From Escherichia phage vB-Eco-KMB43: a stretch of 64,000 nt of DNA. The DNA is taken from sequence record OR525698.1. One strand, written 5' to 3'. Under the pieces are notes generated by a model. That model made no database searches, was not told where the DNA came from, and worked only from the letters and a program-made list of their open reading frames with translations. Numbering within the stretch: the first letter of the stretch is position 1; every line of letters begins with the position of its first letter. Below are positions 14,383 to 26,203 of the stretch, piece by piece. Both the position numbers and the translations under genes were made by a program.

Positions 14383-14400
14383 CACTTTCTAAGAAAAATT

Positions 14401-14685
14401 TTAAACTAATCGAATGTAGCCCAGAATTTCAGCACCTTTAGCCAGACCTAAAACTTCCCATTCAAGGTCGCCGTAGTCATAATTTGCAACCATCAACTGA
14501 CCATTTTTCATGCAGCAATCATGAGAGAAAATTTGCCCCGCATAAACTACGATAGTAATAAACTTTCCTGATTCTGGCGGTGTGGAAGACAAAGCGACCA
14601 TATGACCATTCAGCTTAGTCACCAGTGATGGAACAATAAAATTCGGGCTTACCTGAATACCGTTAAATTCGTTTGTGTCTTTCAT
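14401..14685 (-). CDS. hypothetical protein (94 aa)
   Basis: ORF with an ATGA overlap to the upstream gene. Confidence 0.6.
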   Translation of the reverse strand: MKDTNEFNGIQVSPNFIVPSLVTKLNGHMVALSSTPPESGKFITIVVYAGQIFSHDCCMKNGQLMVANYDYGDLEWEVLGLAKGAEILGYIRLV

Positions 14686-15032
14686 GCCATACCCCTTAAA
14701 ACACTAATAGCATAATCATGCTGGTTATTCATAATATCAATTGCATTGTGATAACGAGCTAAACCATCAAGGATAAATTCTTGTTTATCCTGTTTCAGTT
14801 TGGTATCACGCGCAGCCATAAGAGCATCAAGAACAGGTCCAAAGTGATTATCTAATTCATCTTCGGTTGCAATATTTCCTATTGCCTCGTCGATCCGTGA
14901 TTCTAATGCTTGCTTTTCGTTGATCACTTGCTGGGTATATTCCAACACATCAAGAATATCGCGGGTAACGTCGCCATGATAAGGTATTCCCGCATGAAGA
15001 TGATCAATTAATCGCTGAATATCAATGTTCAT
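14682..15032 (-). CDS. hypothetical protein (116 aa)
   Basis: ORF with an ATGA overlap to the upstream gene. Confidence 0.6.
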   Translation of the reverse strand: MNIDIQRLIDHLHAGIPYHGDVTRDILDVLEYTQQVINEKQALESRIDEAIGNIATEDELDNHFGPVLDALMAARDTKLKQDKQEFILDGLARYHNAIDIMNNQHDYAISVLRGMA

Positions 15033-15367
15033 TTGTAACCCTCCTCTGAAAGCACATCCCAGATCGTTGAGTCAAGGTGCATTAAATTCCACATAATAGA
15101 GTCATAACTACCGAAGCCAGAAGTAAAAATTACATCACACTGGCGATATGTCTTATGAAAATCGGTGGCTGTCTCTGCATCAATCGGCATATCGTCACCT
15201 GAAAGCACCAGACATTTAAGAATCATAACTCTGTTAGCCGTTGGCGCTTGCTTAGTCTTTTCAGCATATTTTTCGATGATCCGTTTTGCCTTTTCTTCTT
15301 TGATACGTCCAGACCAAATCCGGTTTCGGTATTGATTCATAATAATTTCAATCACATCATTTTGCAT
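15029..15367 (-). CDS. hypothetical protein (112 aa)
   Basis: ORF that overlaps the upstream gene by 11 nt. Confidence 0.6.
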   Translation of the reverse strand: MQNDVIEIIMNQYRNRIWSGRIKEEKAKRIIEKYAEKTKQAPTANRVMILKCLVLSGDDMPIDAETATDFHKTYRQCDVIFTSGFGSYDSIMWNLMHLDSTIWDVLSEEGYK

Positions 15368-15566
15368 TCTTCACGGTCTCCATAATTGTTTTGTAAGCCA
15401 GTTTAAGATGATCACCGAAAAACTTTGCGGTGTTACCCTTCGGATCGCGGAGCATGGTTTCTACGATCTCATCGGCAGTAACAATTTCTCCTTTCTTTGC
15501 TGCATGTTCTACCATATACTTCAAAGTTTCTTCGGAAGCAAGTGCTGCCGCTACTGGATTAATCAT
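15357..15566 (-). CDS. hypothetical protein (69 aa)
   Basis: First gene behind promoter cassette 15597..15625. SD is AAGGAGAATCAAAA. Confidence 0.6.
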   Translation of the reverse strand: MINPVAAALASEETLKYMVEHAAKKGEIVTADEIVETMLRDPKGNTAKFFGDHLKLAYKTIMETVKNAK

Positions 15567-15596
15567 TTTTGATTCTCCTTTGTTGTCGATGTGTGC

Positions 15597-15625
15597 ATTA
15601 TGCTATACCCTATTCCGGTTGTCAA
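15597..15625 (-). promoter_or_regulatory. sigma70-type early promoter cassette
   Basis: TTGACA-17-CATAAT, directly after terminator 15631..15662. Confidence 0.8.
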
Positions 15626-15630
15626 CACCT

Positions 15631-15662
15631 AAAAACGAAAAAGCCACCCTTTCGGATGGCTT
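15631..15662 (-). terminator. intrinsic terminator
   Basis: GCCATCC-GAAA-GGGTGGC followed by TTTTTCGTTTTT. Confidence 0.85.
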
Positions 15663-15894
15663 TTGATTATATTTTATTCACGTCCATTTGTATAGTAGTG
15701 TTTGAATCGACCTTTGCTAAACTAGTTAAACATAGTAACCAATTCACCATCCCTTTCCAATGATAACCCTTCCTCGTCTTAGACGGGTCTTCCGATTCGG
15801 CAGTAATTGAACACGCGAAAGTATGAGGAAGCCAAATAGTTGTCTTAATGCTAGTATTCTTTTACTTCTGGTATGCATCCCACGGTGACTAACA

Positions 15895-16293
15895 TTAAGA
15901 CAGTCGAGTGAGTTTATAAATTGTTTTAAAACATAGAGCTTTGATATCGTCTAAAACGCTCTGTAACGAGCTATCAACATCATTATAAATCTCACTAGCC
16001 ATTTGCGTTAACTCTTGCAAATAGGCAATTTCGCTAATCTCCTTGCGGACGACCAACGTTGGCTGATAACGACCAGTGATCCCAATATTGGTTTCAGTGA
16101 AATCATCAACCAATTCTTGCATTTCAAGATAGAACTCTTCTAGAGCCTTATGTTTTGCATAAGATCCAGGACCAGTTACCCCAAAATGCGCAGAATGCAT
16201 ATAAGTAACACTCATCAGACATTCACCGATAAAGCGGTCAACTTTATTAGCTTTCCCCTCTTCGGACGTCTTTCGAAAATCACTGAATTTCAT
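15895..16293 (-). CDS. Dps/ferritin-like four-helix-bundle protein (132 aa), tentative
   Basis: HSAHFGVTGPGSYAKHKALEEFYLEMQELVDDFTE fits the Dps pattern H[WF].V.G..F..H...EE.Y......D...E. Start moved to ATG 16293 after GGAGAATCGAGAAC. The track ORF extends spuriously to 16392. Confidence 0.55.
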   Translation of the reverse strand: MKFSDFRKTSEEGKANKVDRFIGECLMSVTYMHSAHFGVTGPGSYAKHKALEEFYLEMQELVDDFTETNIGITGRYQPTLVVRKEISEIAYLQELTQMASEIYNDVDSSLQSVLDDIKALCFKTIYKLTRLS

Positions 16294-16582
16294 GTTCTCG
16301 ATTCTCCATATTATGCAACATAACAAACTGTTGTGCGGCATATTCCCCCATAATAAAACACTGCTTAGAATCCATACATTTACTACGAGCATACATCTTC
16401 ATAATATGGGCATGAAATTTCTGGCTGGTTTCAATGGAAGGAGATATTTTGTTTACATATACTATCATTGCGCCGTCGAAATAATCAGTAAAGTCACCAG
16501 TTGGATCATATTGATCAGCACTGACACTTCCGACCGCAGTCAAGCATATTGCCGCTGTTAGAGTTTTACGAATAAATGACAT
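16280..16582 (-). CDS. small secreted protein (100 aa) with a signal peptide
   Basis: N-terminus MSFIRKTLTAAICLTAVGSVSA/DQ looks like a Sec signal. SD is GGGGGAATGACTT. A late-promoter motif lies upstream. Confidence 0.6.
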   Translation of the reverse strand: MSFIRKTLTAAICLTAVGSVSADQYDPTGDFTDYFDGAMIVYVNKISPSIETSQKFHAHIMKMYARSKCMDSKQCFIMGEYAAQQFVMLHNMENREHEIQ

Positions 16583-16591
16583 AAGTCATTC

Positions 16592-16631
16592 CCCCAGATT
16601 AAAAATATTCAGTTATATTTATAATCTGGGG
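16592..16631 (-). other. 10-bp-stem hairpin after tk that encloses a late-promoter motif
   Basis: Arms CCCCAGATTA / TAATCTGGGG with a 20-nt AT-rich loop. Confidence 0.55.
16616..16623 (-). promoter_or_regulatory. T4-type late promoter motif TATAAATA
   Basis: Exact TATAAATA on the minus strand, 34 nt upstream of ATG 16582. Lies inside hairpin 16592..16631. Confidence 0.55.
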
Positions 16632-16650
16632 CTTTATTTATGATTAACTC

Positions 16651-17247
16651 TTATTTGGTAGTACCGTCAATAAAATGTTTACGACACACAGAAACATATT
16701 TATCCTCTGCACCAACTTCTATTTGAGCACCATCGCGAATAACATTACCATCTTTATCTACGCGAAGGACCATAGTCGCTTTCTTGCCACAATGACAAAT
16801 ACCCTTCATTTCGACCAGTTTATCAGCAAATGCCATTAATGCCGTAGATCCTTCAAATAGATTGCCCTGAAAGTCAGTGCGAAGGCCATAGCACAGTACA
16901 GGGATATTAGCATCATCAACAAGCGCACACAAGCCTAAAACATGCTCTTTAGTCATAAATTGGGCTTCGTCTACAAAAACTGCATCTGGACGCCATCGAT
17001 CCGGTCTACGCTTACCTAACGATTCACGATAAACCAAGTCGAAAAGATCATCCGATTTAGTGAAGGTGATCGCTGGAGCACTTAGGCCAATTCGGGAAAC
17101 GACTTCACTTTCTGAATCTCGATTATCAATCGCTGGCTTAAGAATTAATACTCGCATATCACGTTCGGTATAGTTATAAGCACTTTGTAACAGAGAAGTT
17201 GATTTGCCAGCGTTCATAGATGCATAGTAGAAATATAATTGCGCCAT
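16651..17247 (-). CDS. tk: thymidine kinase
   Basis: MAQLYFYY..MNAGKST.LLQS.YNY P-loop and the C-terminal Zn motif (CHCG...VCRKH) closely match recalled E. coli/T4 Tdk. Confidence 0.95.
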   Translation of the reverse strand: MAQLYFYYASMNAGKSTSLLQSAYNYTERDMRVLILKPAIDNRDSESEVVSRIGLSAPAITFTKSDDLFDLVYRESLGKRRPDRWRPDAVFVDEAQFMTKEHVLGLCALVDDANIPVLCYGLRTDFQGNLFEGSTALMAFADKLVEMKGICHCGKKATMVLRVDKDGNVIRDGAQIEVGAEDKYVSVCRKHFIDGTTK

Positions 17248-17540
17248 TAATTAATCTCCAAAAATCCAACAAGGCCTAAACCGATATAAGTCCAGATACC
17301 AATGAAAAAGATGTTAATGCTCATGGCAAGGATAAACCCTTTCAGAGTTTTGGGATACCCGACCCAATATTCCCGACCATCTTCTAACCGGATCAACTTA
17401 TTGCCTTGCGAGTCCATATCAACTACAACATGTTTATTTCGAGATTGCAATAGATATTGTTTTACAATCTCTACACCCGCCATAATAACAATAACGAAAA
17501 TAAAAGTCCACACAACAAGATTAATGATAGTCTCAAGCAT
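17247..17540 (-). CDS. hypothetical membrane protein (97 aa)
   Basis: Two long hydrophobic segments at the N- and C-termini. Overlaps the tk start by 1 nt. Confidence 0.6.
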   Translation of the reverse strand: MLETIINLVVWTFIFVIVIMAGVEIVKQYLLQSRNKHVVVDMDSQGNKLIRLEDGREYWVGYPKTLKGFILAMSINIFFIGIWTYIGLGLVGFLEIN

Positions 17541-17751
17541 TTTCTATCACCTCCACCCAATCAGGTGTTTCCTGAAAGACTCCTTCACCTTCATGATGGT
17601 CGCAACCTTTATTGCTGCAATACATCCACCAATCCCACATTCCCCACGGTAAACGCTGCATATCGTCGTTACAGCAAGTGAAGATAATAGGCCAACCACA
17701 TCTAACACATCGGCAGTTTTCCTTCATGTGTGCGGTATTAGGCTTCTTCAT
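17533..17751 (-). CDS. small Cys-rich protein (72 aa)
   Basis: ATGA overlap at 17751 after GGAGTCATCT. Contains CRCVRCG...CCNDD...CSNKGCDHHEG. Confidence 0.55.
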   Translation of the reverse strand: MKKPNTAHMKENCRCVRCGWPIIFTCCNDDMQRLPWGMWDWWMYCSNKGCDHHEGEGVFQETPDWVEVIENA

Positions 17752-17942
17752 AGATGACTCCAATATAATCGACATTTACATTTAGGGCAATGCGGTTCTT
17801 TAATATAATACCCGTCTGTCTTTGGAACACTAACAGGAGCGGTTTTTATATTGTATTCAGTGAAACAACGAAAACAAGTTACGTTTTCTACAGACTGACG
17901 TTTCACCCAATCACCGGAATATAGATCATTTTTATTTGTCAT
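17748..17942 (-). CDS. small zinc-ribbon-like protein (64 aa)
   Basis: CFRC...CPKC pairs. ATG 17942 overlaps the end of the macro-domain gene. Confidence 0.55.
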   Translation of the reverse strand: MTNKNDLYSGDWVKRQSVENVTCFRCFTEYNIKTAPVSVPKTDGYYIKEPHCPKCKCRLYWSHL

Positions 17943-18387
17943 ATTCAACCACCACAATGTTAATGTCTGGAGTAGCAATATTAATGATCTCTTCTACACA
18001 TTCCCACTCAAGGCCACCGATACCGCAACCGATTTTAGGAATATAGAAAGGCTGTATAGCACCTTCAAAAACATCATTGATAGTCTCAAATCCTTTCAGG
18101 ATAGCACCATATTCAGCATTTGGACCCGGTCGGAATTGGGTATAGAGATTCACCCCGCACCAGTTATAACCATTAACTTGATGCGTCCAGACACTAAACC
18201 CACCCAGCTTTTCTACCTTACCGCGAGAAGTTTGCTTGTCAATCTCTAACGCTTGCGGGAACTCTTTCGCGATCTTTGCAGCAATACCAGCGCCCATAGT
18301 ATGAAAACAATTACAACCATGAATTAAATGACCGTTTCCTTGTTTAAACAGGGCGATGAGATCGCCCTTTACAGTATCAATAATCAT
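17932..18387 (-). CDS. macro-domain protein (Poa1p/Appr-1''-pase-like ADP-ribose binding or hydrolase fold)
   Basis: GDL...HGCNCFHTMGAGIA...IPKIGCGIGGL matches the H.CNC....G.GIA macro-domain signature. Confidence 0.75.
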   Translation of the reverse strand: MIIDTVKGDLIALFKQGNGHLIHGCNCFHTMGAGIAAKIAKEFPQALEIDKQTSRGKVEKLGGFSVWTHQVNGYNWCGVNLYTQFRPGPNAEYGAILKGFETINDVFEGAIQPFYIPKIGCGIGGLEWECVEEIINIATPDINIVVVEYDK

Positions 18388-18402
18388 AATATAAACCTCT
18401 CA

Positions 18403-18762
18403 TTAGTCACGGGAAGACAACCCAGCCATAAAACGGCTTAACAGTGTGTCGCGATAAGCAAAGCATAATTGCTTATCAGGGGCAGTATCACAAAGGTTGC
18501 GTTTTGTTTTAGCAAAGCTGGCAATACTCAGATCCCATGCTCGATTTTTTCGTTTTTCGTCTCGACCTTGTTTGTATGCTTCGTCGAGTTCAAGTGCGAT
18601 AAAATCACTACACATGTTATCATCATCACAGAAAGTTTTAATGATCTTTTTGTTGATCTCAAATCCTTTGTATTCGAACTTTGGATAAGGGCGCTCATTA
18701 CTAGCAAGCGCACCAGCCGAGAACATCATAGCAATCATAGCAATTATTGTCAACTTTTTCAT
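18403..18762 (-). CDS. secreted or periplasmic hypothetical protein (119 aa)
   Basis: Signal peptide MKKLTIIAMIAMMFSAGALA/SN. Four Cys in the mature part. Confidence 0.6.
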   Translation of the reverse strand: MKKLTIIAMIAMMFSAGALASNERPYPKFEYKGFEINKKIIKTFCDDDNMCSDFIALELDEAYKQGRDEKRKNRAWDLSIASFAKTKRNLCDTAPDKQLCFAYRDTLLSRFMAGLSSRD

Positions 18763-18769
18763 ATATTCC

Positions 18770-19360
18770 TCAATAGCGTTTAGTCTTAAGAATGCCTTTA
18801 CTCTTTAGATGGTTAGCCTTTTTTAGTACGTCATCAGCATAACCTAATCCGGCTTTATAGTTCCATCCAGCATTGTAAGAAGCTAGCGCGAGTCGGATAT
18901 TACCGTTTCGAACATCCAGCCAGTATGCTAACTCATCCATCGCGTAGAATGCAGAAACCTCGCGATTCATGATAAAGTTGATAGTCTGGCGATCACTCAT
19001 TTTAACACCGCGCTTTGCATTTTTCGCTTTCACCGTTTTAAGGTAATTTTGAAATAATCCATAAGCATGATGATTTTTCTTTGGTGCTAAGTTTGCACCC
19101 GCGCTTGATTCTTGCCATGCGATACCCGCCAGGATGTGACCTAAACCCTTTCCGTTATAGCGAATATTCGGATGGTCCTTTTTCAACTTACCGCTTTTCT
19201 CGAATTGCTCGCCGTATTGATAGGCGAAATGTAAATTATCTAGTTGGTGTGCTGTAAAGTTGTCTATCGGCGCTTTTTTGATCGGTGCGCTAGTCGATGC
19301 GTGTGTAGCACCAACGGCTAGTGACAGACTCAATACTATCGCTTTTAGAACTTTTAACAT
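18770..19360 (-). CDS. secreted lytic transglycosylase-like protein (SLT domain)
   Basis: Signal peptide, then GIAWQESSAG (the catalytic E-S motif of SLT) and ASYNAG. Occupies the T4 vs.1 position next to regB. Confidence 0.7.
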   Translation of the reverse strand: MLKVLKAIVLSLSLAVGATHASTSAPIKKAPIDNFTAHQLDNLHFAYQYGEQFEKSGKLKKDHPNIRYNGKGLGHILAGIAWQESSAGANLAPKKNHHAYGLFQNYLKTVKAKNAKRGVKMSDRQTINFIMNREVSAFYAMDELAYWLDVRNGNIRLALASYNAGWNYKAGLGYADDVLKKANHLKSKGILKTKRY

Positions 19361-19394
19361 TAATTTCTCCTGTTTGGCTTAACTTTCTGATTCC

Positions 19395-19423
19395 ATAATA
19401 TAGCCCTATCACCAGAAAGTCAA
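19395..19423 (-). promoter_or_regulatory. sigma70-type promoter (weaker match)
   Basis: TTGACT-17-TATTAT. Inverted repeat CTTTCTG/CAGAAAG flanks the -10. Lies upstream of the SLT-like gene. Confidence 0.55.
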
Positions 19424-19446
19424 GCATTATTTTTAACCAATTTCCA

Positions 19447-19869
19447 TTATTGGTCTACCTTCAAAACAACCGCCGACATTTTACCCGCCAGTCGTTTTGG
19501 ATTCTCTATAATCATTCGACAGCATAGACCGTGATACGGCTTGCCGTCTTCAATTAGGTCTACTGTCATCCCGATCCACATGTTACCGTCAGTAATTTCT
19601 AATCGATTAGGTCGGTCTTCCATTTTCAGGAAGTCGAAGATCTCCGGCAAACGAGTTTCTATCTTATTGAATAGTTCCATTGTCTTATGTTCATCGATAT
19701 GACGATCGGTTAGACGGTCGATCATATGCGGACTAAAGCGAATAAAAATATACTCACCATAACCATCATTCAAACACTTTTCTTTGATCTGCGCATTGGT
19801 TTTGCGCATTTCGGTTTCGAAGAATCTACGCAGCTTACTACGGCGAACATGTACGTTAATTGTTTCCAT
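19447..19869 (-). CDS. regB: RegB endoribonuclease (cleaves GGAG in early mRNA)
   Basis: METINVHVRRSKLRRFFE...NRLEITDGNMW...CRMIIENPKRLAGK aligns with recalled T4 RegB (FIRRNKLRRHFE...GRLEITDGNLW...CRMAIINSRRLPGK). Start moved to ATG 19869. Confidence 0.75.
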   Translation of the reverse strand: METINVHVRRSKLRRFFETEMRKTNAQIKEKCLNDGYGEYIFIRFSPHMIDRLTDRHIDEHKTMELFNKIETRLPEIFDFLKMEDRPNRLEITDGNMWIGMTVDLIEDGKPYHGLCCRMIIENPKRLAGKMSAVVLKVDQ

Positions 19870-19873
19870 TTTA

Positions 19874-20209
19874 TTATCCTTTCTTAAACAAATTGCGAAT
19901 CCAGTATACAAACGGGATTTCTTTAAACTTGAACTTGTCAATAGTTAATTCTTTAGTAGCAAGATGAATACCATAAGCATCATGTGTAACTATATGCCAT
20001 TTTCTATAGTCCAAATGTGAACAACCGTCTGGATCTAGGTTAATAAGAGTTTCTCTCTCACTAGGATTATTTTTCCACAATTTTGTAATAGGATCGCACA
20101 TAATTCGACCTAGCGTACCATGAATAATCTCACAACGGTAAAGTTTTCCAGCAGTGAGATAGGCGCACCCGTCATAGTCGGTATAAACAAACACTTCTTT
20201 AACACTCAT
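19874..20209 (-). CDS. hypothetical protein, member of a 3-gene paralog set (111 aa)
   Basis: The track ORF reads through the promoter. ATG 20209 follows AAAGGAGTATTAAA. Contains LTAGKLY...DPDGCSHLDYRKWHIV. Confidence 0.6.
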   Translation of the reverse strand: MSVKEVFVYTDYDGCAYLTAGKLYRCEIIHGTLGRIMCDPITKLWKNNPSERETLINLDPDGCSHLDYRKWHIVTHDAYGIHLATKELTIDKFKFKEIPFVYWIRNLFKKG

Positions 20210-20240
20210 TTTAATACTCCTTTGTTGTTTCGATGGGGGT

Positions 20241-20269
20241 ATATTACTACCCCCGATCATGTGTGTCAA
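20241..20269 (-). promoter_or_regulatory. sigma70-type early promoter cassette
   Basis: TTGACA-17-TAATAT. Inverted repeat GGGGGTA/TACCCCC flanks the -10. Confidence 0.75.
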
Positions 20270-20515
20270 CTACTTTTTCAAGATTTTTTTGATTGCATTC
20301 CAAAGACCTTTATTTCCAGGTTGTTTTGGTTCTTCGATCAGTGTCCATGTTCGACCGTCTAAGTGTGCACAATTTTTAAGACAAATAAAAATCTGGTGTC
20401 CCTTATCATCACGGATATAACCACTATTCGCAAATCTTTCATGTGGTGTATATTCATACAGTGTATTAGGTGTAATATACTTGCGGTTACTATAAGGTGT
20501 CATCACATACATCAT
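20270..20515 (-). CDS. hypothetical protein, paralog set (81 aa)
   Basis: ITPNTLYEYTP...GYIRDDKGHQI...NCAHLDGRTWTLI. ATGA overlap at 20515. Confidence 0.6.
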   Translation of the reverse strand: MMYVMTPYSNRKYITPNTLYEYTPHERFANSGYIRDDKGHQIFICLKNCAHLDGRTWTLIEEPKQPGNKGLWNAIKKILKK

Positions 20516-20706
20516 GGTACTAACTCCCAATTATCACCGCGAAGATGAGAACATCCACCATCAAGAAGGATCGTAATACGATAACCTATATCATCTTTGA
20601 TGTAACCGATTGTCGGTGGATTTTCGTAGTCTCGTGTCGGGGTAAAATCATACATCTTTCCTGGCGTAATATCTTGTCCTTTATTGCTATTGGTATAAAC
20701 TTTCAT
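20512..20706 (-). CDS. hypothetical protein, paralog set (64 aa)
   Basis: ITPGKMYDFTP...GYIKDDIGYRI...GGCSHLRGDNWELV. Confidence 0.6.
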   Translation of the reverse strand: MKVYTNSNKGQDITPGKMYDFTPTRDYENPPTIGYIKDDIGYRITILLDGGCSHLRGDNWELVP

Positions 20707-20727
20707 TTTCTTAATCTCCTATATTAA

Positions 20728-21426
20728 CTAACCACGGGTATAGTGTTCCAGAACAACTGTCAGATGAATATATTCTAATAAATCTTTCCAAAAGTCAACA
20801 TCTGGTTCTTCCGGCATACCGTTTTTCTTTGCCTCTTCACGAGCGAGTTTAACACGCTCGTAGAGATCTTTCAATTCTTCCCGCACATTATCAAAGGTTC
20901 TTTCTCCTAACTTACACGCTAAAATAGAAGAACGTCGCGCGAGCGGGAATTGTAGATCACCTGTCTGATAGATTTCAAGTAGCTGATAACCAACACGCAG
21001 AGCATGAGAAAGATCTTTCCAGTTACTGAAATACTTTTCAGATTTGGCTACCTGCTTTTTGAGATAGCCAGACAAACCCCACATACCAACATGATAGAAT
21101 TTATCTCGATGTGTTCGGATGTATTCCCATTCTCTGGAGGATTCAATCAACATGTTACTAGGAGCGTGCACCATGTCAATAGCGCCGATATCGCCTTTAC
21201 ATGCCAGATTGATAAACCGTTTTAGACTGAACATATTAACATCAATATCGTCTTTGGTGTTCTTGATACCTTGACCGCTAGTGCTTTGGTCATAGTGTTC
21301 TTTCATCGATCCTAAGATAATTTCTTTCGCAGTCGGAACAAAGATACCACGATAATCTTTATCGGAATTTTCAGTATCAAGGCCGTATAAGTGAGATCCG
21401 AAGACCATTTTAACCATTGTATGCAT
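20728..21426 (-). CDS. predicted nucleotidyltransferase (pol-beta superfamily, RlaP/PF10127-like)
   Basis: The N-terminal FGSHLYGLDTENSDKDYRGIF matches the GS.LYG...SD.D..G signature of this family. Assigned from memory. Confidence 0.65.
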   Translation of the reverse strand: MHTMVKMVFGSHLYGLDTENSDKDYRGIFVPTAKEIILGSMKEHYDQSTSGQGIKNTKDDIDVNMFSLKRFINLACKGDIGAIDMVHAPSNMLIESSREWEYIRTHRDKFYHVGMWGLSGYLKKQVAKSEKYFSNWKDLSHALRVGYQLLEIYQTGDLQFPLARRSSILACKLGERTFDNVREELKDLYERVKLAREEAKKNGMPEEPDVDFWKDLLEYIHLTVVLEHYTRG

Positions 21427-21470
21427 AATTAAACCCTCAGTTGATTAAGAGATTGCATCATATCATCATA

Positions 21471-21503
21471 AAACGAAAAAGCCAACCCTTTTCGGATTGG
21501 CTT
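21471..21503 (-). terminator. intrinsic terminator after the grcA-like gene
   Basis: GCCAATCC-GAAAA-GGGTTGGC followed by TTTTTCGTTTT. Unlike the other copies, it is not followed by a TTGACA promoter. Confidence 0.8.
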
Positions 21504-21512
21504 GATGAAAAA

Positions 21513-21929
21513 TTAGAGAGATTCGGTAAAGGTACGAGCGATAACATCACGTTGCTGGTCTGGAGTCAGACTATTGAAGCGCACTGCGTAACCAGAAACG
21601 CGAATTGTAAGCTGCGGGTACTTCTCAGGATGTTCAACAGCGTCCAGCAACATTTCTCGTAACAATACGTTAACATTCAAATGCTGACCACCTTCGACAA
21701 CCGGAGCACCATTATCTACAATCACCGGACGGAAGCTAGTTGTGTGCAGTGCCAGCGAATCGACGTCTTCTGCGGTGATCACATGGTCTTCTGCGAAAGT
21801 TTTACTAACAATTACTTTAGCGCCGATCAGTGCTTTCGGTTCGGATACCAGAATCATAGGCGCGAAGTGTCCACCAATAATAGTACCTTTATGTTCACCT
21901 TTCATGATTTGAATTGCTTTAAATTCCAT
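21513..21929 (-). CDS. grcA: autonomous glycyl-radical cofactor (GrcA/YfiD-like, T4 Y06I-type)
   Basis: The C-terminal ~60 aa ([12 protein letters not shown]...[35 protein letters not shown]) are almost identical to E. coli GrcA as I recall it. The N-terminal half has diverged. Confidence 0.9.
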
Positions 21930-21939
21930 AATTCACCTC

Positions 21940-22065
21940 TTATAGATCAGGACGTTCGTCATTAATTTTACCAACCAAAACACCATAGAGTTTATCAGGT
22001 TGGACTTTACGATTCTTATTGATTTTAGCACGGAATCGACGAGCTACGCTATCTTTATTTTTCAT
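21940..22065 (-). CDS. small basic peptide (41 aa), not in the ORF track
   Basis: ATG 22065 overlaps the upstream TAA (TAATG). Sequence MKNKDSVARRFRAKINKNRKVQPDKLYGVLVGKINDERPDL. Its stop is followed by AAGAGGTGAATT and the grcA-like ATG. Confidence 0.4.
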   Translation of the reverse strand: MKNKDSVARRFRAKINKNRKVQPDKLYGVLVGKINDERPDL

Positions 22066-22556
22066 TAGTTGATACCTAAGCCAATGAAAATAGGTTGGTC
22101 TTCTACATTACCCATCCCAACACTAAGTCGATTTACTTCTAAAAACTGCAATACGCTGTCAGTAAATCCGCGCATGGTAGTATCTAGGATAAAAATTGTT
22201 TTGTCAAGACTACGACCTCGCCATGTGATCGGATTCAGGAAAGTTCGGATCGACGTACAATCTACATTTGAAATATTTACATTTTCACCGCGACCGCGAT
22301 CTCGGATCGTTTTGGCATGTCCCCGCGTCGTTGAAACGATAAAGACACTATAGCCTTTTCTCGTATAATGGTCATATAACTTGATTGTAGCGTCTGTATG
22401 CCCTGTCTGACGGCCTAAATTGATTGAGACAATGGAATCTAGGTCATCAGCAAAATTGCGTCGCTTACGGCGTTCTATGATGCAATTTACGGCAGAAATA
22501 CACGCAGCATAAATCAAATCTTTACTTTCTAATTCTAAATCAATGTCAATATTCAT
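22065..22556 (-). CDS. hypothetical protein (163 aa), possible degenerate P-loop fold
   Basis: NLGRQTGHT (Walker-A-like but lacking Lys) and TIFILD (Walker-B-like). Weak and unverified. Confidence 0.6.
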   Translation of the reverse strand: MNIDIDLELESKDLIYAACISAVNCIIERRKRRNFADDLDSIVSINLGRQTGHTDATIKLYDHYTRKGYSVFIVSTTRGHAKTIRDRGRGENVNISNVDCTSIRTFLNPITWRGRSLDKTIFILDTTMRGFTDSVLQFLEVNRLSVGMGNVEDQPIFIGLGIN

Positions 22557-22618
22557 GGTAAAGTCTCCAGTGAACGGGGAGAGATCCTTAGATTGTCTCC
22601 CCGTTGATGGTTAATATT

Positions 22619-23194
22619 TTATTTTGGATCTGGGAAATTCAATAGAGCATATTCTCCATAAAATTTCCTAGCTGCATTATCATAAGCGATTGCAGCTTCG
22701 ATTTCTGTGTCATATTGTCCAAGAACATGTCTTTGTAGGTTGACCATTATACTAGCTCTCCATTTCTTACGCAAATCCTTCCTGTTACACTTACTAACAC
22801 CCTTATACACACTAGAAAACTTTTTAGACTTCTTCTTTCTATTATGTTGATTTTGCGCGTCGGTTGCCTCCCTAAGATTTGGAGGATTGTTATTAGCAGG
22901 ATTACCGTCAATATGATCAATTAATCTAACTTGCGTCCCATGTTCTAGAAACCAAACAACCCTATGCACGAATAAATGAACTCTAGGAAGACCGTCATCT
23001 CTACTATGCCAAAATCGAAGATGACCATCTTTATTTGTTCTGACTTTAACTAAATCGCCGTGTTTATATCTACTCCCTAATGGTCGTCCTTTGATAGCTT
23101 TACTATCGACTCTATAATATAAGATACCCTCTATATGAGCATATCTAAGTTTTATCTCGTTTTGTAGGGATTCATCCCAATATTTAAAAGCCAT
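22619..23194 (-). CDS. free-standing HNH homing endonuclease with an AP2 domain (second copy)
   Basis: HRVVWFLEHG...IDHIDGNPANNNPPNLREATDAQN (HNH) and YKGVS...WRASI...LGQYDTEIEAAIAYDNAA (AP2). Visibly more AT-rich than its neighbours. Confidence 0.85.
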   Translation of the reverse strand: MAFKYWDESLQNEIKLRYAHIEGILYYRVDSKAIKGRPLGSRYKHGDLVKVRTNKDGHLRFWHSRDDGLPRVHLFVHRVVWFLEHGTQVRLIDHIDGNPANNNPPNLREATDAQNQHNRKKKSKKFSSVYKGVSKCNRKDLRKKWRASIMVNLQRHVLGQYDTEIEAAIAYDNAARKFYGEYALLNFPDPK

Positions 23195-23209
23195 TTTATA
23201 ATCCTCACA

Positions 23210-23231
23210 AAGCCAGCGATTAAGCTGGCTT
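23210..23231 (-). terminator. hairpin after the endolysin gene (weak U-run)
   Basis: AAGCCAGC-TTAATC-GCTGGCTT followed by TGTGAGG. It may be an RNA-stability hairpin rather than a terminator. Confidence 0.45.
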
Positions 23232-23239
23232 GATTTTAG

Positions 23240-23629
23240 TTATACCGGGTCTGGATATACCTTTTTATCGAGTTCCATATGCGGTCCGTCTTTAAAAGTA
23301 ACCCAATCAACACCGCAGATAACAGGAACACCCAATTCTCGACCAGCTTGTTTAAATGCATCCGCGATCATGCGGTAGTATTTCATGTTCCATGTATCCT
23401 TATCTTTCGGATACGCTACAACGTCAACCGCGAAACCGTGAAGATGACGAGATTTCATAGTCTTAGATTTACCTTCCGCAACATATTTCTTTTGCGTTTC
23501 TAGACTACGTACACCTTCCGTAATACCAAAATCGACCGGAGTCAGTTCTAACGCACGATGAACGACTTTTACCAGGTCAGGATGCACACCAACAAGCCGA
23601 TCTTTGCTTCTTTGAGATAATTTAAACAT
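23240..23629 (-). CDS. endolysin, L-alanyl-D-glutamate peptidase (T5 Lys / peptidase M15 type)
   Basis: V.P.L.KV..RALELTP.DF.I.EG.R......KSRH..G.A.D...Y...GPHMELD aligns with recalled T5 endolysin. This type is known for RB49 and RB43. Confidence 0.9.
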   Translation of the reverse strand: MFKLSQRSKDRLVGVHPDLVKVVHRALELTPVDFGITEGVRSLETQKKYVAEGKSKTMKSRHLHGFAVDVVAYPKDKDTWNMKYYRMIADAFKQAGRELGVPVICGVDWVTFKDGPHMELDKKVYPDPV

Positions 23630-23657
23630 TATTCACCCCCTTTGTGAGTGATAATAT

Positions 23658-23849
23658 TTAGATTCCGGCGATCCTGCATAGAGTTCTTGTATTAGCACCA
23701 ATAAGGATAGCATTAACGACAACCATTCCCCAATCAACCCACGGATTATTATAAATGCTAAATCCGTTTGCTAGGCCAAATACAAGCATTCCGGTACACA
23801 TACTCAGAGCAATAATCAACATCACGGTAAAACCAAATGCAAATCTCAT
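23658..23849 (-). CDS. small membrane protein (63 aa, 2 TM)
   Basis: Hydrophobic helices. Immediately upstream of the endolysin. Confidence 0.55.
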   Translation of the reverse strand: MRFAFGFTVMLIIALSMCTGMLVFGLANGFSIYNNPWVDWGMVVVNAILIGANTRTLCRIAGI

Positions 23850-23850
23850 A

Positions 23851-24066
23851 TTATTTTCCTTTTCTCTGTTTACGTTTATAAAAGTAATACATTACCTCAT
23901 CGCGTCCGGTGATCCAACATGCTAGGGCGGTAAACAGGTTTACAATTCCCAACACACCTACGGATGCGGCGCTGTCAACAGACATAGGAACAGTAAAGGC
24001 CATAGCTAACATAGCAACGCCACAAATGACATTAAGCACCATTATAATAAGACCGAAGAAAACCAT
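23851..24066 (-). CDS. small membrane protein (71 aa) with a basic C-tail
   Basis: Start moved to ATG 24066 after GGAGGATTGACA. Two TM helices and a KRKQRKGK tail. Confidence 0.55.
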   Translation of the reverse strand: MVFFGLIIMVLNVICGVAMLAMAFTVPMSVDSAASVGVLGIVNLFTALACWITGRDEVMYYFYKRKQRKGK

Positions 24067-24068
24067 TG

Positions 24069-24248
24069 TCAATCCTCCGACACAAGAAAACCAACAATCA
24101 CGCCAGTGATAAGACATGATGCGCCGCTAATCAGACAACCCGCACCAAGTGATTCCCACCAGATCAGAGAAGCGACAATAACACAGAATCCCCACACTAC
24201 CGCAATCACAACATAGGCAAGGGTCGCCCAAAACATATATTTGTTCAT
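24069..24248 (-). CDS. small membrane protein (59 aa)
   Basis: ATGA overlap at 24248. Two TM helices. Confidence 0.55.
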   Translation of the reverse strand: MNKYMFWATLAYVVIAVVWGFCVIVASLIWWESLGAGCLISGASCLITGVIVGFLVSED

Positions 24249-24433
24249 AATAAATCCCATTCACCAAACAAATAAGAAAAAAGCCATATCAACAGAAACG
24301 AGGCAATTGATCCGACAAGCAAAATGATATTAGAGAATCCGCCGTCTATCCAGGCGACAAAACAGAATACACCAGTATAGAAGCATAAACCCATTACAAA
24401 ACATACTATAAGCAACCATAGACAAAACGCCAT
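24245..24433 (-). CDS. small membrane protein (62 aa)
   Basis: SD GGAGGGCTTTCT. Two TM helices. Confidence 0.55.
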   Translation of the reverse strand: MAFCLWLLIVCFVMGLCFYTGVFCFVAWIDGGFSNIILLVGSIASFLLIWLFSYLFGEWDLL

Positions 24434-24494
24434 AGAAAGCCCTCCAGTGAGCTAATTTAGTGCGGGTAGTACATTACCCTACCCGTATTGTTAA

Positions 24495-24653
24495 TCATCG
24501 CAGAGCTTCTTCTAGCGCGATCCCAAACCATCCACAAACAACGCCCATACAGACAGCTACAAGAAGATTCATTCTCTCTTTAGGGATCATTGCAATCATA
24601 ACAACAACCATACAGAAAGCCATTACCATTGAAGTTAACATTTGTTCAACCAT
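24495..24653 (-). CDS. small membrane protein (52 aa), not in the ORF track
   Basis: MVEQMLTSMVMAFCMVVVMIAMIPKERMNLLVAVCMGVVCGWFGIALEEALR. ATG lies 3 nt after the upstream stop (TGATAAATG). Confidence 0.45.
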   Translation of the reverse strand: MVEQMLTSMVMAFCMVVVMIAMIPKERMNLLVAVCMGVVCGWFGIALEEALR

Positions 24654-24656
24654 TTA

Positions 24657-24971
24657 TCACACCTTTAAAGTCATAGACGCATAAACATTAATGCCAGGCC
24701 AGTTAGGATCGCAATTATACTCAACATCCCACAAATAAAGCGGTTTAGATGTATCAGCCAAGTTTTTAAAATCTTCTACCCACATTTCAAGGCTATATGA
24801 TGGATAAACTAGGCTATCATATCCGCCGTAACGTTGGCCTACTGGTCGGTCAGTAAAAACTACCTCAAGATCCGGTAATTCTTTTTCAAGGATAACCGCC
24901 AGCGCATAAATCAGACGGTCTTCCTTGTTACGCTGCCGAAGGACCGTTGTCAGTTGGTTTTTCTGGTTCAC
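24657..24971 (-). CDS. hypothetical protein (~104 aa)
   Basis: The ORF track starts at 24995. GTG 24971 follows GGAGGTGCTTGCTA. The start is uncertain and the gene overlaps the upstream gene. Confidence 0.55.
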   Translation of the reverse strand: MNQKNQLTTVLRQRNKEDRLIYALAVILEKELPDLEVVFTDRPVGQRYGGYDSLVYPSYSLEMWVEDFKNLADTSKPLYLWDVEYNCDPNWPGINVYASMTLKV

Positions 24972-25248
24972 TAGCAAGCACCTCCACATTTTCACAGAAT
25001 GAAATTTTCACAGACACAATTTTACCATAAGTGAAGAATGAATATACATTATCGAGATATTCAACGTCACCTACAATCACATCAAACTGCGGATCAGCAA
25101 CCACCGCAACATATTCTACCAGTTCATCAAGAGAATGCAACTTAATTTCATCAATTCGGCTGTATTTGGTCGCATCTTTAATTTTAAAACCAAGTTCTTT
25201 CAGCTTGTCAATCAGAATTTCACGCGGAGTTTCAAACAGTTTGCTCAT
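24928..25248 (-). CDS. hypothetical protein (106 aa)
   Basis: ORF with SD GAGGATTATATT. Confidence 0.6.
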   Translation of the reverse strand: MSKLFETPREILIDKLKELGFKIKDATKYSRIDEIKLHSLDELVEYVAVVADPQFDVIVGDVEYLDNVYSFFTYGKIVSVKISFCENVEVLASEPEKPTDNGPSAA

Positions 25249-25269
25249 AATATAATCCTCACATTAAAT

Positions 25270-25467
25270 CTAAAATTTGTTAACGACGAATTGCATAATT
25301 AGACTAATCACAAACATTGCAAACCAAGTATAAATGCAACAGATAAAAGCTACATACAATTCAATCTGGTCAGAGAATACACCGGGTAAAAGCATTAGCA
25401 AAATAACAACAGTAAAGACGCTAGCGATACCCGCAACAAAACCAATATCATTTTTACTAATCGTCAT
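25270..25467 (-). CDS. small membrane protein (65 aa)
   Basis: ATG 25467 overlaps the upstream TGA. Two TM helices. Confidence 0.55.
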   Translation of the reverse strand: MTISKNDIGFVAGIASVFTVVILLMLLPGVFSDQIELYVAFICCIYTWFAMFVISLIMQFVVNKF

Positions 25468-25664
25468 CAAGTCACCGTTTTGTAAAGAAACACAATAAAA
25501 TCCCAGACAAAAAAGACAGTGAAAATAATCATCGTCAAGACAATAAACACTGTCAGATTTTCATCGTTAGTTAATTCATGACCGTCCATCCATATAATCA
25601 CCAGATAAAACATCGAAATCAAGGAGGCGAATACCAAATTATAAAACTCTTCCTTTAATGACAT
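25467..25664 (-). CDS. small membrane protein (65 aa)
   Basis: Two TM helices. Tightly packed against its neighbours. Confidence 0.55.
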   Translation of the reverse strand: MSLKEEFYNLVFASLISMFYLVIIWMDGHELTNDENLTVFIVLTMIIFTVFFVWDFIVFLYKTVT

Positions 25665-25665
25665 A

Positions 25666-25848
25666 CTACACCTCGTCGCGGCTTAAGTCAACAGCAATTG
25701 CATACAGCATAATTAATATGCTAGCAGATCCGAGAATCAATGCACCCTCACATTTTGAAACTCGCTCATCAAAATGTAACATTATCCATCCGAGGATGTT
25801 AAAGGCGCAGACCGCGCCTATGTTCGCTAACCAATTAATCTTTTTCAT
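25666..25848 (-). CDS. small membrane protein (60 aa)
   Basis: Two TM helices. Confidence 0.55.
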   Translation of the reverse strand: MKKINWLANIGAVCAFNILGWIMLHFDERVSKCEGALILGSASILIMLYAIAVDLSRDEV

Positions 25849-25856
25849 AATATACC

Positions 25857-26183
25857 TTAGAAAGAAACAGTTTTCAAGAAATCCAGATTTTTAGTACCGA
25901 AAACAGAAAAGTAGTGTTCTCCTTTTTCGGTTTTAGAGAAAGCGATTGTCTTCTCTACATGGTGACGGAAGCCAGACAGACGATCACCCAGGTCAAGGCG
26001 GCAAGCGTAAGTAGTGCCGTTTTCGAAAGTAACCTCGATTTGAGTTTTGTCATATTCGCTTTCATAGGCTTTTGCTGCTGCGTCCTGTGCTTTACGCTCG
26101 AAGTCTTCGAAGTGGAATACTTCGTTTGCGTTAGCGAATACAGAAGATTCAGAGAAGATAACTTTAACAGATACTGGTTTCAT
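25857..26183 (-). CDS. hypothetical protein (108 aa)
   Basis: First gene behind promoter cassette 26226..26254. Confidence 0.65.
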   Translation of the reverse strand: MKPVSVKVIFSESSVFANANEVFHFEDFERKAQDAAAKAYESEYDKTQIEVTFENGTTYACRLDLGDRLSGFRHHVEKTIAFSKTEKGEHYFSVFGTKNLDFLKTVSF

Positions 26184-26203
26184 TTTGATACTCCTTAGTA
26201 GTT

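Follow-up and report, generated by a model that had tools for sequence, protein, structure and literature searches.

Inverted repeats at the -10 boxes of Krischvirus early promoters are the stem-loops of PeSL cassettes, with evidence for pairing in RNA

G-rich/C-rich inverted repeats lie on or beside the -10 boxes of early promoters in Escherichia phage vB-Eco-KMB43 (record OR525698.1), and the question raised by this arrangement is what such a hairpin does and in which nucleic acid it forms. The window, the whole stretch of 64,000 nucleotides that was analysed, is a Krischvirus (RB49/phi1/JSE-type) genome segment with 98.0% identity to RB49 over 4 kb, and at least 80% of the query was covered in 58 Krischvirus records. 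No tRNA was detected in the window by ARAGORN, and Rfam searches of the window and three environmental loci returned zero matches at gathering thresholds. The repeats are the stem-loop component of the published PeSLs (promoter-early stem-loops) of RB49/phi1-type T4-like phages and are in that sense already known; the stem-loop positions, the attenuator/terminator idea and inter-cassette recombination are described in the PeSL papers (Arbiol et al. 2010, PMC2839356; Comeau et al. 2014, PMC4122927).

The early cassettes sit among open reading frames of 50-200 aa in 1..30 kb of the window, and 18 bona fide early cassettes were counted in the window. From 5' to 3' they consist of an A/T-rich tract, the hexamers TTGACA and TAnnnT set 16-17 nt apart, an A as predicted +1, a leader that is C/A-rich and conserved, a Shine-Dalgarno sequence (SD) and ATG. 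The two hexamers matched the sigma-70 consensus (TTGACA-N17-TATAAT) at 10-12 of 12 positions with a spacer of 16-17 nt, and the SD and ATG were found 23-40 nt past the predicted +1. The +1 was set at the 7th base after the -10 hexamer, which is A in 11 of 13 sites. At each hairpin site a TTGACA-16/17-TAnnnT early promoter is combined with a G-rich/C-rich inverted repeat, either around the -10 (class A) or within the spacer (class B). The class A hairpins were as follows.

20235..20254, minus strand: GGGGGTA-gtaata-TACCCCC; -10 TAATAT 20241..20246; -35 TTGACA 20264..20269; predicted +1 A 20234; RNA -14.0 kcal/mol
28742..28761, minus strand: GGGGGTA-gtaaga-TACCCCC; -10 TAAGAT 28748..28753; -35 28771..28776; RNA -13.6 kcal/mol
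6215..6234, minus strand: GGGAGTA-gtaaga-TACTCCC; -10 TAAGAT 6221..6226; -35 6244..6249; RNA -11.9 kcal/mol
7123..7146, minus strand: ATGGGAGTA-gtaaaa-TACTCCCAT; -10 TAAAAT 7131..7136; -35 7154..7159; RNA -13.8 kcal/mol
4981..5002, minus strand: GGGAGTAT-gctata-ATACTCCC; -10 TATAAT 4987..4992; -35 5009..5014; RNA -13.3 kcal/mol
11077..11102, minus strand: ATGCGGTTA-atctataa-TAGCCGCAT, 9 bp with one U·G; -10 TATAAT 11085..11090; -35 11108..11113; RNA -11.7 kcal/mol
26220..26241, minus strand: GGGTGTAT-agcata-ATACACCC, 8 bp; -10 CATAAT 26226..26231; -35 26249..26254; RNA -13.0 kcal/mol
14349..14369, minus strand: weak stem TGTGT-(11 nt)-ACACA around -10 CATAAT 14354..14359

The class B hairpins, and a long-range stem enclosing a core promoter, were as follows.

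1317..1334, minus strand: GGGGATC-tcgc-GATCCCC in spacer; -10 TATACT 1311..1316; RNA -13.0 kcal/mol
11766..11784, minus strand: AGGGGATC-ggt-GATCCCCT in spacer; -10 TATACT 11761..11766; RNA -12.8 kcal/mol
14065..14082, minus strand: ACGGGGA-gaaa-TCCCCGT in spacer; -10 TATAAT 14060..14065; RNA -12.8 kcal/mol
26942..26956, minus strand: GGGAG-gataa-CTCCC in spacer; -10 TACAAT 26935..26940; RNA -8.7 kcal/mol
19377..19425, minus strand: long-range stem of 13 bp, one pair being G·U, GCTTGACTTTCTG...CAGAAAGTTAAGC; spacer and -10 TATTAT 19395..19400 lie inside it; 5' arm overlaps -35 19418..19423

All 12 inverted repeats listed by the initial annotation were present, on the minus strand, including the four spacer palindromes at 1311, 11761, 14060 and 26935. 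Its spans located the sites but ran from the -10 to the -35 rather than over the hairpin; the 3' arm extends a few bases past the low coordinate of each, and the site given as 20241..20269, for instance, has its hairpin at 20235..20254. Placement of the -10 in the loop, given for eight sites, held for the seven compact ones; the eighth, 19395..19423, is the 13-bp stem around the core promoter. The arm lengths were corrected from 5 to 8 bp at 26226..26254 and to 9 bp with one U·G at 11085..11113. Among the 18 cassettes seven hairpins overlap the -10, four lie in the spacer, one overlaps the -35, five are upstream elements of terminator type and one is weak. Each cassette has a single hairpin element, which surrounds the -10, lies within the spacer, encloses the complete core promoter or is a terminator just 5' of the -35. 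Two to three registers relative to the -10 were distinguished in one count, and at least four positions or registers in another.

Relative to the predicted +1, the seven compact class A sites have their 5' arm at -24..-14 and a 3' arm that spans -8..-1, reaching +2 at two of them; the 3' arm of the long-range stem lies at about -1..+12. The upstream arm had been recognised as preceding the start; at the seven compact sites essentially both arms do so. Because the hairpin is 5' of the predicted +1, only read-in transcripts can contain it, which agrees with the earlier proposal that it is confined to such transcripts.

Strong hairpins were defined by a minimum free energy (MFE) of -8.7 kcal/mol or lower over 32-33 nt, from the -35 end to +3. 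Compact hairpins of -8.7 to -14.3 kcal/mol were present in 11 of 18 cassettes, compared with 1.4 expected from dinucleotide shuffles, and in 300 shuffle sets the observed mean MFE was never matched. The strong-hairpin level was reached by only 4.5% of the window's 89 promoter-like decoys (Mann-Whitney p = 1.3e-4). Orthologues were drawn from GenBank phage records. In 12 related genomes, variable sites numbered 7 of 161 in stems, 20 of 54 in unpaired spacer (p = 1e-8) and 13 of 60 in loops, which makes the stems ~9-fold less variable than the adjacent unpaired spacer. Conservation does not by itself settle the matter: the leader 3' of +1 is conserved like the stems (5.0% against 4.3% variable sites), and homogenisation of cassettes by recombination could be the source of part of the stem conservation.

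Covariation of the arms was seen from one cassette family to another and, in a single instance, among orthologues, in line with selection on pairing; covariation across related phages was a check proposed by the initial annotation. The two class A register families were aligned separately, because the existence of two registers caused a joint MAFFT alignment to place one family off by a column. In one register family, two-sided changes were present at three stem positions (CG/GC, GC/UA/AU and GC/UA/UG/AU) and 97.9% of cells were paired, a value equalled by none of 500 shuffles; in the other family one pair was AU in 10, GC in 7 and GU in 2. The change between orthologues is at the weak stem of cassette 14382 (14349..14369), which is GGTGT/ACACC in most relatives, a compensatory T-A to G-C substitution. 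In orthologues the 28742..28761 hairpin shifts between G5/C6 and G6/C5, the 6215..6234 stem is longer by one C-G pair in orthologues L004 and L006, and A to G changes yield U·G in the stems at 7123..7146 (L003 and L010) and 4981..5002 (L005). At 11077..11102 the wobble pair is moved or lost in three orthologous haplotypes, all of which pair with G·U allowed. At 1317..1334 the loop alone varies, the stem at 26942..26956 keeps 6-7 bp in 8 of 8 related loci with the cassette, and the arms at 19377..19425 are without change in 8 orthologues. A counter-example is cassette 6249 (6215..6234) in L003, in which the stem is broken by two C to A changes. Of 12 loci, just one contains an orthologue of cassette 14087.

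Distant blastn searches returned zero relatives between about 72% and 92% identity, and for that reason covariation among orthologues is confined to a tight genus. An IMG/VR locus search with a Frd.2/GoF-like protein gave three loci, all Krischvirus. An IMG/VR pattern match in marine T4-like contigs does not amount to evidence of a wider family, as it came from a single lineage with about 0.4 chance matches expected (rough estimate).

Independent internal changes to G·U on the sense strand numbered six, compared with zero clean A·C (one-sided p about 0.016, a small count), and strand-biased mutation may have influenced the count. An initial tally of 13 against 8 had allowed pseudo-pairs at helix ends, giving spurious A·C, which came from helices extended at their edges into the conserved aaAC...CATc flanks and from one bulged stem. 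When Watson-Crick flanks were required two A·C calls were left, both artefactual. The hairpin at 11077..11102 has 9 bp on the sense strand and 6 bp on the antisense strand, where it is weaker because G·U there becomes A·C.

Several cassettes carry a canonical intrinsic terminator 5' of the -35, as follows.

29230..29262, minus strand: canonical intrinsic terminator ACCCCGAAA-aatt-TTTCGGGGT with T-run, 5 nt 5' of the -35 of cassette 29224, which is without embedded hairpin
27258..27286, minus strand: canonical intrinsic terminator, 25 nt 5' of cassette 27232
15631..15664, minus strand: canonical intrinsic terminator, 5 nt 5' of cassette 15625, without embedded hairpin
2518..2549, minus strand: canonical intrinsic terminator, 6 nt 5' of cassette 2511, without embedded hairpin
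42351..42387, plus strand: canonical intrinsic terminator, 4 nt 5' of the sole plus-strand cassette (-35 at 42392), without embedded hairpin

Of the hairpin, cassette 27232 retains just the half-arm on the 3' side, ATACACCC, and it has a recombinant appearance. All five cassettes without any embedded hairpin have a canonical intrinsic terminator just 5' of the -35. In the window, a canonical terminator 4-25 nt 5' of the -35 was present in five of seven cassettes without a strong hairpin and in none of the 11 with one (Fisher p about 0.0025, by hand). For the window and phi1 HPR3 together, the terminator occurred in 0 of 25 hairpin cassettes against 7 of 10 others (p about 2e-5 by hand, the cassettes being not fully independent). 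Both tables are manual counts, since grouping the cassettes of different loci automatically (p = 0.018) split orthologues and admitted coding-region decoys. The upstream stem-loops of these cassettes are ordinary intrinsic terminators, which together with the comparative pairing and sense-strand evidence, the -10-bracketing class without a U-tract and the several registers relative to the -10 is what is added here to the PeSL description. An RNA-level role is supported by the family covariation, the compensatory change between orthologues, the sense-strand G·U bias and the either/or pattern with terminators.

The embedded hairpins resemble Rho-independent terminators in being G+C-rich RNA hairpins of 7-9 bp at a gene end, and the two are mutually exclusive within the cassette family. 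They differ in what follows the stem, as at least five U in eight nucleotides are lacking. The class A tail is AUCGAAAC or AUCUAAAC; the 9 nt past the stem contain 0-2 T and no U-tract. After a class B stem comes just the -10 hexamer (UAUACU or UAUAAU), and these tails have 2-4 T. A consensus terminator scan of 14000..30000 called no class A and no class B hairpin on the sense strand; its sense-strand calls were separate upstream terminators only. Hairpins without a U-tract, as in class A, should terminate E. coli RNA polymerase alone poorly. G-run/C-run hairpins without a promoter were found between late genes at 51405..51422, 57436..57456 and 57983..58001, and promoterless copies are also present in phi1 IG198/197 and IG208/207.

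In the published work the stem-loop within the early promoter was proposed as an attenuator of upstream transcription and a recombination site as early as 2010 (PMC2839356). The one reporter test concerned a single stem-loop, PeSL211/210, which cut downstream lacZ expression like rrnB T1 (PMC2839356); it was classified by way of its phi1 counterpart, IG212/210, which is of the spacer class followed by UUAUAAU. For such an activity in the window, the either/or pattern with canonical terminators is indirect support. The stem and loop at 11766..11784 (GGGGATC-ggt-GATCCCC) are identical to those of IG212/210. It is also published that PeSL promoters are active and that mini-circles arise through PeSL-PeSL exchange. 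The cassettes of the window share with the PeSLs of RB49/phi1 the phage group, promoter consensus, AT-rich upstream tract and SD/ATG end, the GN-loop-CN stem-loop positions (in the -35/-10 gap or overlapping the -10) and the proposed roles in attenuating or terminating upstream transcription and in recombination between cassettes, with nothing essential different. Cassettes may mark the edges of insertions, deletions and exchanges between related phages; chimeric cassettes and one half-stem relic were seen. No 3'-end or transcription start site mapping was found in the literature for any Krischvirus.

On this evidence the embedded hairpins are probably 3'-end elements of the upstream message in PeSL cassettes. 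Their position 5' of +1 means that only a polymerase arriving from the upstream gene transcribes them, and in the read-through RNA a stable hairpin would form, at -12 to -14 kcal/mol. This hairpin may act as an attenuator or terminator, or as a barrier to 3' exonucleases, for the upstream message, and the small gene cassettes would thereby be insulated from one another. The cassette's own mRNA would start just past the hairpin and include none of it. We infer the position of +1, and also that the -10-bracketing class does the job of the spacer class. Overlap of hairpin and promoter probably represents compaction of the 60-90 nt intergenic spaces, a reading adopted because the register of the hairpin relative to the -10 is not fixed; a fixed geometry with the -10 in the loop as the purpose of the structure was rejected, as the registers differ. 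Recombination between cassettes would be a by-product of their ~100-bp similarity. A doubtful variant is that the -10-bracketing hairpins without a U-tract are a distinct signal read only in read-through RNA, either a tunable or factor-assisted attenuator that governs the amount of transcription passing between successive early cassettes or a processing or 3'-protection site; in the processing form, polycistronic early RNA would be cut to unit messages ending exactly at the start of the next message. RB49 is not known to have MotA-type middle promoters.

A role in DNA, as a cruciform or single-stranded hairpin forming a recombination hot spot or the target of a phage recombination protein that drives shuffling, is unlikely. 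The literature records PeSL-PeSL exchanges and mini-circles, places one RB49 crossover within the loop of a stem-loop and includes the authors' speculation about a GGGG...CCCC-binding protein (PMC2839356). In the present data a chimeric cassette GGGGGTA...TACTCCC occurs in L007, L013 and L036, cassette 27232 has the 3' half-arm only and the gene for Endonuclease VII (gp49) is nearby. Against this, arms of 7-9 bp with loops of 6-8 nt have a folding energy of just -5.4 to -7.5 kcal/mol on each DNA strand. Such energies are far below the cost of melting about 20 bp, barring extreme supercoiling. The repeats also lack the long perfect arms, very short spacer and equal strand stability of a cruciform, the G·U-only variants are A·C mismatches in the opposite arm, and palindrome-less cassettes with an upstream terminator are equally members of the repeat family. 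The DNA cruciform suggested earlier is therefore disfavoured, and of the suggested recombination hot spots the exchange between cassettes is borne out by the literature but its tie to the stem is not, the crossover points being scattered over the ~100-bp homologous cassette (PMC2839356). That the arms have no structural function, being G+C-rich promoter tuning in the spacer or discriminator or an inheritance from a few duplicated ancestral cassettes, is decidedly unlikely. The cassettes do form a repeat family conserved as a whole, leader included, and a C-rich discriminator could alter open-complex lifetime, but each differing arm sequence is matched by its complement, a compensatory change separates orthologues, and the stems are free of the hypervariability seen in unpaired spacer only a few bases from them. 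Promoter tuning, moreover, does not predict the either/or relation with upstream terminators.

Operator palindromes by which a dimeric DNA-binding regulator of phage or host would shut off the early promoters would be centred on or adjoin the -10, as these are, and GGGRGTA-N6-TACYCCC is found repeatedly at one set distance from the -35; the arm polarity is uniform, G-run first. This reading is nevertheless very unlikely: the arms are diverse yet complementary (GGGTGTAT, GGGGATAT, GCGGTTAT, GGGGATC, CGGGGA), at least eight arm sequences replacing the same half-site in a fixed position that a dimeric repressor would use, the palindrome takes at least four registers relative to the -10 or lies 5' of the -35, the loops are free to vary, single changes give G·T pairs that break dyad symmetry for a protein, and promoterless copies of the same hairpins exist. 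Antisense terminators, with the opposite-strand palindrome followed by a U-rich tail from the complement of the A-rich spacer, are highly improbable; 28742..28761 was called terminator-like on the plus strand and plus-strand 7121..7148 is followed by TTTCTTATT, but only one of three class A hairpins in the scanned stretch qualifies on the antisense strand, the tail is the hypervariable spacer with 37% variable sites, and the G·U pairs favour the sense strand. Translational discrimination, in which the SD or AUG is masked in read-through RNA and only local RNA is translated, is extremely improbable. The hairpins of T4 genes e, soc, 49 and I-TevI share with the window a promoter within the hairpin-coding region, and there read-in transcripts carry the full hairpin and local ones lack the 5' arm (PMC3014915, section 29); in the window the 5' arms, at -37..-14 relative to the inferred +1, are likewise absent from local RNA. 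In T4, however, translation is controlled through sequestration of the SD or AUG in the hairpin, whereas in the window the hairpin lies wholly 5' of +1, ending at -1 or -12, and the SD, which starts at +12 to +25 (+12..+28 overall), is outside it. In most hairpin cassettes the predicted unpaired probability of SD..AUG was about the same whether the RNA was read-through or local (for example 0.62 vs 0.60; 0.73 vs 0.72), and the SD masking suggested by the initial annotation is not supported.

A further comparison is with the morons of lambdoid phages (promoter-gene-terminator units), which like PeSL cassettes are small accessory genes with their own promoter and stop. In PeSLs, by contrast, the stop of the previous unit is fused into the next promoter and the cassette supplies the homology for shuffling (PMC2839356).

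No new kind of element is described here: these are the PeSL cassettes of Krisch's group (2010, 2014), promoter/terminator modules driving T4-type gene shuffling. The stem-loops that surround the -10 and end at -1 without a U-tract are the commonest and most striking subclass. If these U-tract-less hairpins end or mark read-through RNA, they would combine insulator and strong promoter in one compact, portable part, and they would offer a useful case of hairpin-only effects on E. coli RNA polymerase or on RNA decay.

The 4-kb stretch around the finding was 98.0% identical to Krischvirus RB49 and was matched over at least 80% of its length by 58 RB49/phi1/JSE-type coliphage records. GC skew and an ORF map placed genes on the minus strand in 1..~33,200 and on the plus strand beyond. 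The annotated RB49 record gives the early region the usual T4-type set (nrdD, frd.2/goF, gene 49, nrdC, dam, tk, vs, regB, dmd), and the region is also rich in small hypothetical ORFs. Two structures were noted separately:

33069..33136: 11-12 bp inverted repeat TTTAGCACCCT...AGGGTGCTAAA around ~33 AT-rich nt, where the leftward gene cluster switches to rightward; each arm gives an identical 'GGGTGCTAAAATG' SD and start to one of two divergent ORFs, with promoter-like hexamers on both strands between the arms
31743..31763, between convergent ORFs: hairpin AAGCCCGTC-att-GACGGGCTT set between an A-run and a T-run, resembling a bidirectional intrinsic terminator

Read on the minus strand, every site listed in the initial annotation was an early-promoter cassette, in the order A/T-rich tract, TTGACA, 16-17 nt, TAnnnT, a conserved leader of the "CATCGAAAC" type, and SD with ATG. 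In all, the window held 18 of them; that at 42392 is on the plus strand and the other 17 are on the minus strand. They are named here by the coordinate of the -35 side. The twelve listed sites were all found on the minus strand, and the membership assigned to seven of the eight inverted repeats said to bracket the -10 and to the four palindromes said to lie wholly inside the spacer held. Class A (n = 7) had compact stems of 7-9 bp with most of the -10 hexamer in a 6-8 nt loop, and class B (n = 4), the spacer palindromes, had stems of 5-8 bp entirely within the spacer. The sites exist at the reported coordinates; these cover the promoter from -10 to -35 and not the hairpin, whose 3' arm runs a few bases further. 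The stems at 26226 and 11085 are present at corrected lengths of 8 bp and of 9 bp with one U·G, respectively. The repeat at 19395 pairs over a longer range, as a stem of 13 bp that includes one G·U; its 5' arm overlaps the -35 and its 3' arm is at about -1..+12.

The +1 was set by position, as base seven past the hexamer, where 11 of 13 sites checked have an A; a literature search found no transcript-end or TSS data for Krischvirus. Relative to this predicted start, class A 3' arms reached -1, or +2 at two sites, and class B arms finished at -12/-14, so essentially the whole hairpin would lie upstream of it. Stems of class A took three or more registers around the hexamer; those of class B lay in the spacer, and other stems enclosed the -35 or sat upstream. 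This variable register, with the promoterless copies of the hairpin described below, argues that the structure does not exist to keep the -10 in the loop; it is best seen as an intergenic RNA element fitted into a 60-90 nt intergenic space. A separate promoter-like site, TTGACA-18-AAAAAT at 11460..11495 (minus strand), lay within the coding region of the upstream small ORF and was kept in at least seven relatives. The 9-bp repeat AAAAAGCAT...ATGCTTTTT encloses it, leaving a loop of 31 nt.

The stem-loops are almost certainly the promoter-early stem-loops (PeSLs) of Arbiol et al., 2010 (PMC2839356) and Comeau et al., 2014 (PMC4122927), and the finding is already known save for the -10-bracketing subclass lacking a U-tract. 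Those papers described sigma-70 consensus promoters with an AT-rich tract upstream, stems containing G-T pairs, and PeSL-PeSL recombination yielding mini-circles and gene swaps; they proposed an attenuator or terminator role for upstream transcription, and in a reporter assay one stem-loop cut lacZ like rrnB T1. For the T4/PST and KVP40/nt-1 pairs, the 2014 paper (PMC4122927) places the stem-loop immediately before the promoter, which makes embedding in the promoter a habit of RB49/phi1.

Folding was computed for the 32-33 nt that run from just past the -35 as far as +3. Energies of -8.7 to -14.3 kcal/mol were obtained for 11/18 cassettes against 1.4 expected from dinucleotide shuffles, and the observed mean was reached by 0/300 shuffle sets. 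The distribution was bimodal, with 11 strong hairpins and 7 weak (-4.3 or weaker). Of 89 promoter-like decoys taken from other parts of the window, only 4.5% folded comparably (p = 1.3e-4).

Variation was scored over the 11 hairpin cassettes in 12 homologous early regions (RB49 twice, Makalu_003, JSE, phi1, JK32, Brandy, FL37, LF73P4 and three IMG/VR contigs).

Variable sites by cassette element
Stems: 7/161
Unpaired spacer, -35 to 5' arm: 20/54 (p = 1e-8 against stems)
Loops: 13/60 (p = 2e-4 against stems)

In class A this unpaired spacer segment is 5-9 nt long and was the most variable stretch of the whole cassette (37% variable sites, against 14.5% in the 15 nt upstream of the -35), as at 20255..20263, 7147..7153 and 26242..26248, with the -35 and stem nearly invariant.

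Within stems, A->G changes produced U·G pairs in three cassettes, 7159, 5014 and 11113; in 11113 there are three haplotypes with the wobble shifted or gone. The stem was longer in cassette 26963 (8/8 related loci carrying it) and in cassette 6249 of two related loci (L004 and L006), and G-run/C-run slippage in cassette 28776 retained a 7-bp stem. One true compensatory change was found between orthologues, in cassette 14382 (window TGTGT/ACACA, GGTGT/ACACC in most relatives, with G×A intermediates). The stem was broken in one orthologue, cassette 6249 of locus L003, by two C->A changes. Families sharing the promoter frame had different arms that were still complementary:

GGGAGTAT/ATACTCCC
GGGTGTAT/ATACACCC
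GGGGATAT/ATATCCCC
GCGGTTAT/ATAACCGC

Between families, two-sided changes occurred at three pairs, a covariation reached by 0/500 shuffles; 97.9% of cells were paired, a percentage that is circular because the sets were chosen for folding, unlike the variety of matched arms, which is not. The variable pair of the GGGRGTA/TACYCCC family was AU in 10, GC in 7 and GU in 2. The observation of the initial annotation was confirmed and its interpretation was partly right.

That interpretation included cruciform recombination hot spots and SD masking. Mismatches were counted where Watson-Crick pairs stood on both flanks. On that count G·U arose independently six times and clean A·C not once (one-sided p about 0.016; the sample is small). 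Two A·C calls, a helix-edge extension and a bulged stem, were discarded. Since a sense-strand G·U is A·C on the other strand, selection on the sense transcript is favoured over recognition of duplex DNA or a symmetric cruciform. Predicted folding energies point the same way (RNA -12 to -14 kcal/mol, DNA -5.4 to -7.5 per strand), and the 11077..11102 hairpin had 9 bp on the sense strand against 6 bp on the antisense. Chimeric cassettes do record exchange within or near the loop, for example GGGGGTA...TACTCCC giving one G·U pair. Cruciform hot spots are improbable given the energetics, the strand asymmetry and published crossovers scattered along the cassette. SD masking separates read-through from late-promoter transcripts of T4 genes e, soc, 49 and I-TevI (PMC3014915), where the SD is masked in read-through RNA; in the window cassettes, by contrast, the SD lies outside the hairpin, 12-28 nt past +1, and its predicted accessibility was about equal in read-through and local RNA, which speaks against masking.

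Cassette 27232 (27204..27232) looks recombinant. Its 5' half (…ctatagCATAAT, with upstream terminator) is similar to cassette 29224 (29196..29224) and its 3' half (CATAATACACCCatcgaaacgaaacacg) to cassette 26254 (26226..26254), leaving an orphan 3' half-arm ATACACCC without a partner.

Promoterless G-run/C-run hairpins were found between late genes:

51405..51422, plus strand: TGGGGGA-gtat-TCCCCCA
57436..57456, plus strand: AGCGGGGA-gaaaa-TCCCCGCT
57983..58001, plus strand: GCGGGGA-gaagt-TCCCCGC
50427..50447: a further such hairpin

These had no sigma-70 promoter and only weak U-tracts, so in this phage hairpins of the type are not confined to early cassettes; others occurred in phi1 IG198/197 and IG208/207. 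An identical TTGACA-N9-GGGGGTA-agcaat-TACCCCC was conserved in environmental contigs, in IMG/VR locus L025 (9358..9392) and about 17 others (L015-L023, L026-L030, L032, L034, L039), all copies forming one lineage. Its loop held no canonical -10. In the one contig inspected, an Hsp20-like ORF lay on one side of it and on the other a large ORF resembling, by eye, a T4-type family B DNA polymerase; the gene order there was 44-62-regA-43-like. About 0.4 chance matches were expected by rough estimate, so this pattern may be coincidence.

The five cassettes with essentially no embedded stem (29224, 27232, 15625, 2511 and +42392) all had a textbook intrinsic terminator upstream, in which a GNRA-like loop caps a G+C-rich stem of 9-12 bp and a T-run follows; it ends 4-25 nt before the -35. 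An upstream canonical terminator was present in 0/11 strong-hairpin cassettes (Fisher p about 0.0025, by hand). An independent consensus scan of 14000..30000 recovered all three upstream terminators in that stretch and called none of the embedded hairpins on the sense strand. In phi1 hyperplastic region 3, upstream terminators accompanied none of 14 cassettes with an embedded hairpin and 2/3 without. Pooled over window and phi1, the counts were 0/25 with a hairpin against 7/10 without (p about 2e-5 by hand, which overstates independence because the cassettes are mutually related). By this either/or pattern each cassette holds a single hairpin element, the embedded ones replacing ordinary terminators. 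Separately, the phi1 alt/ORF183 intergenic region (L013 1717..1794) carries the promoter TTGACT-17-TATACT with its -10 within a bulged hairpin of 12 bp, ACGGGGaCTAGT-tttat-ACTAGCCCCGT. A genuine U-tract, TTTTCTGTT, comes after this hairpin, unlike the class A stems of the window; the whole reads as a full predicted intrinsic terminator overlapping a -10.

The phi1 counterpart of the reporter-tested PeSL211/210, IG212/210, is of the spacer class, GGGGATC-ggt-GATCCCC followed by UUAUAAU. The -10-bracketing class is followed by AUCGAAAC, and its lack of a U-tract is a point against a 3'-end role. On balance, this class probably acts at the RNA level as a 3'-end element of the upstream message: the arms covary, wobble pairs are biased to G·U, canonical terminators and embedded hairpins occur as alternatives, and PeSL211/210 has its published reporter test. 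It would serve as an attenuator, terminator or decay barrier for that message, and the cassette's own mRNA would carry no hairpin.
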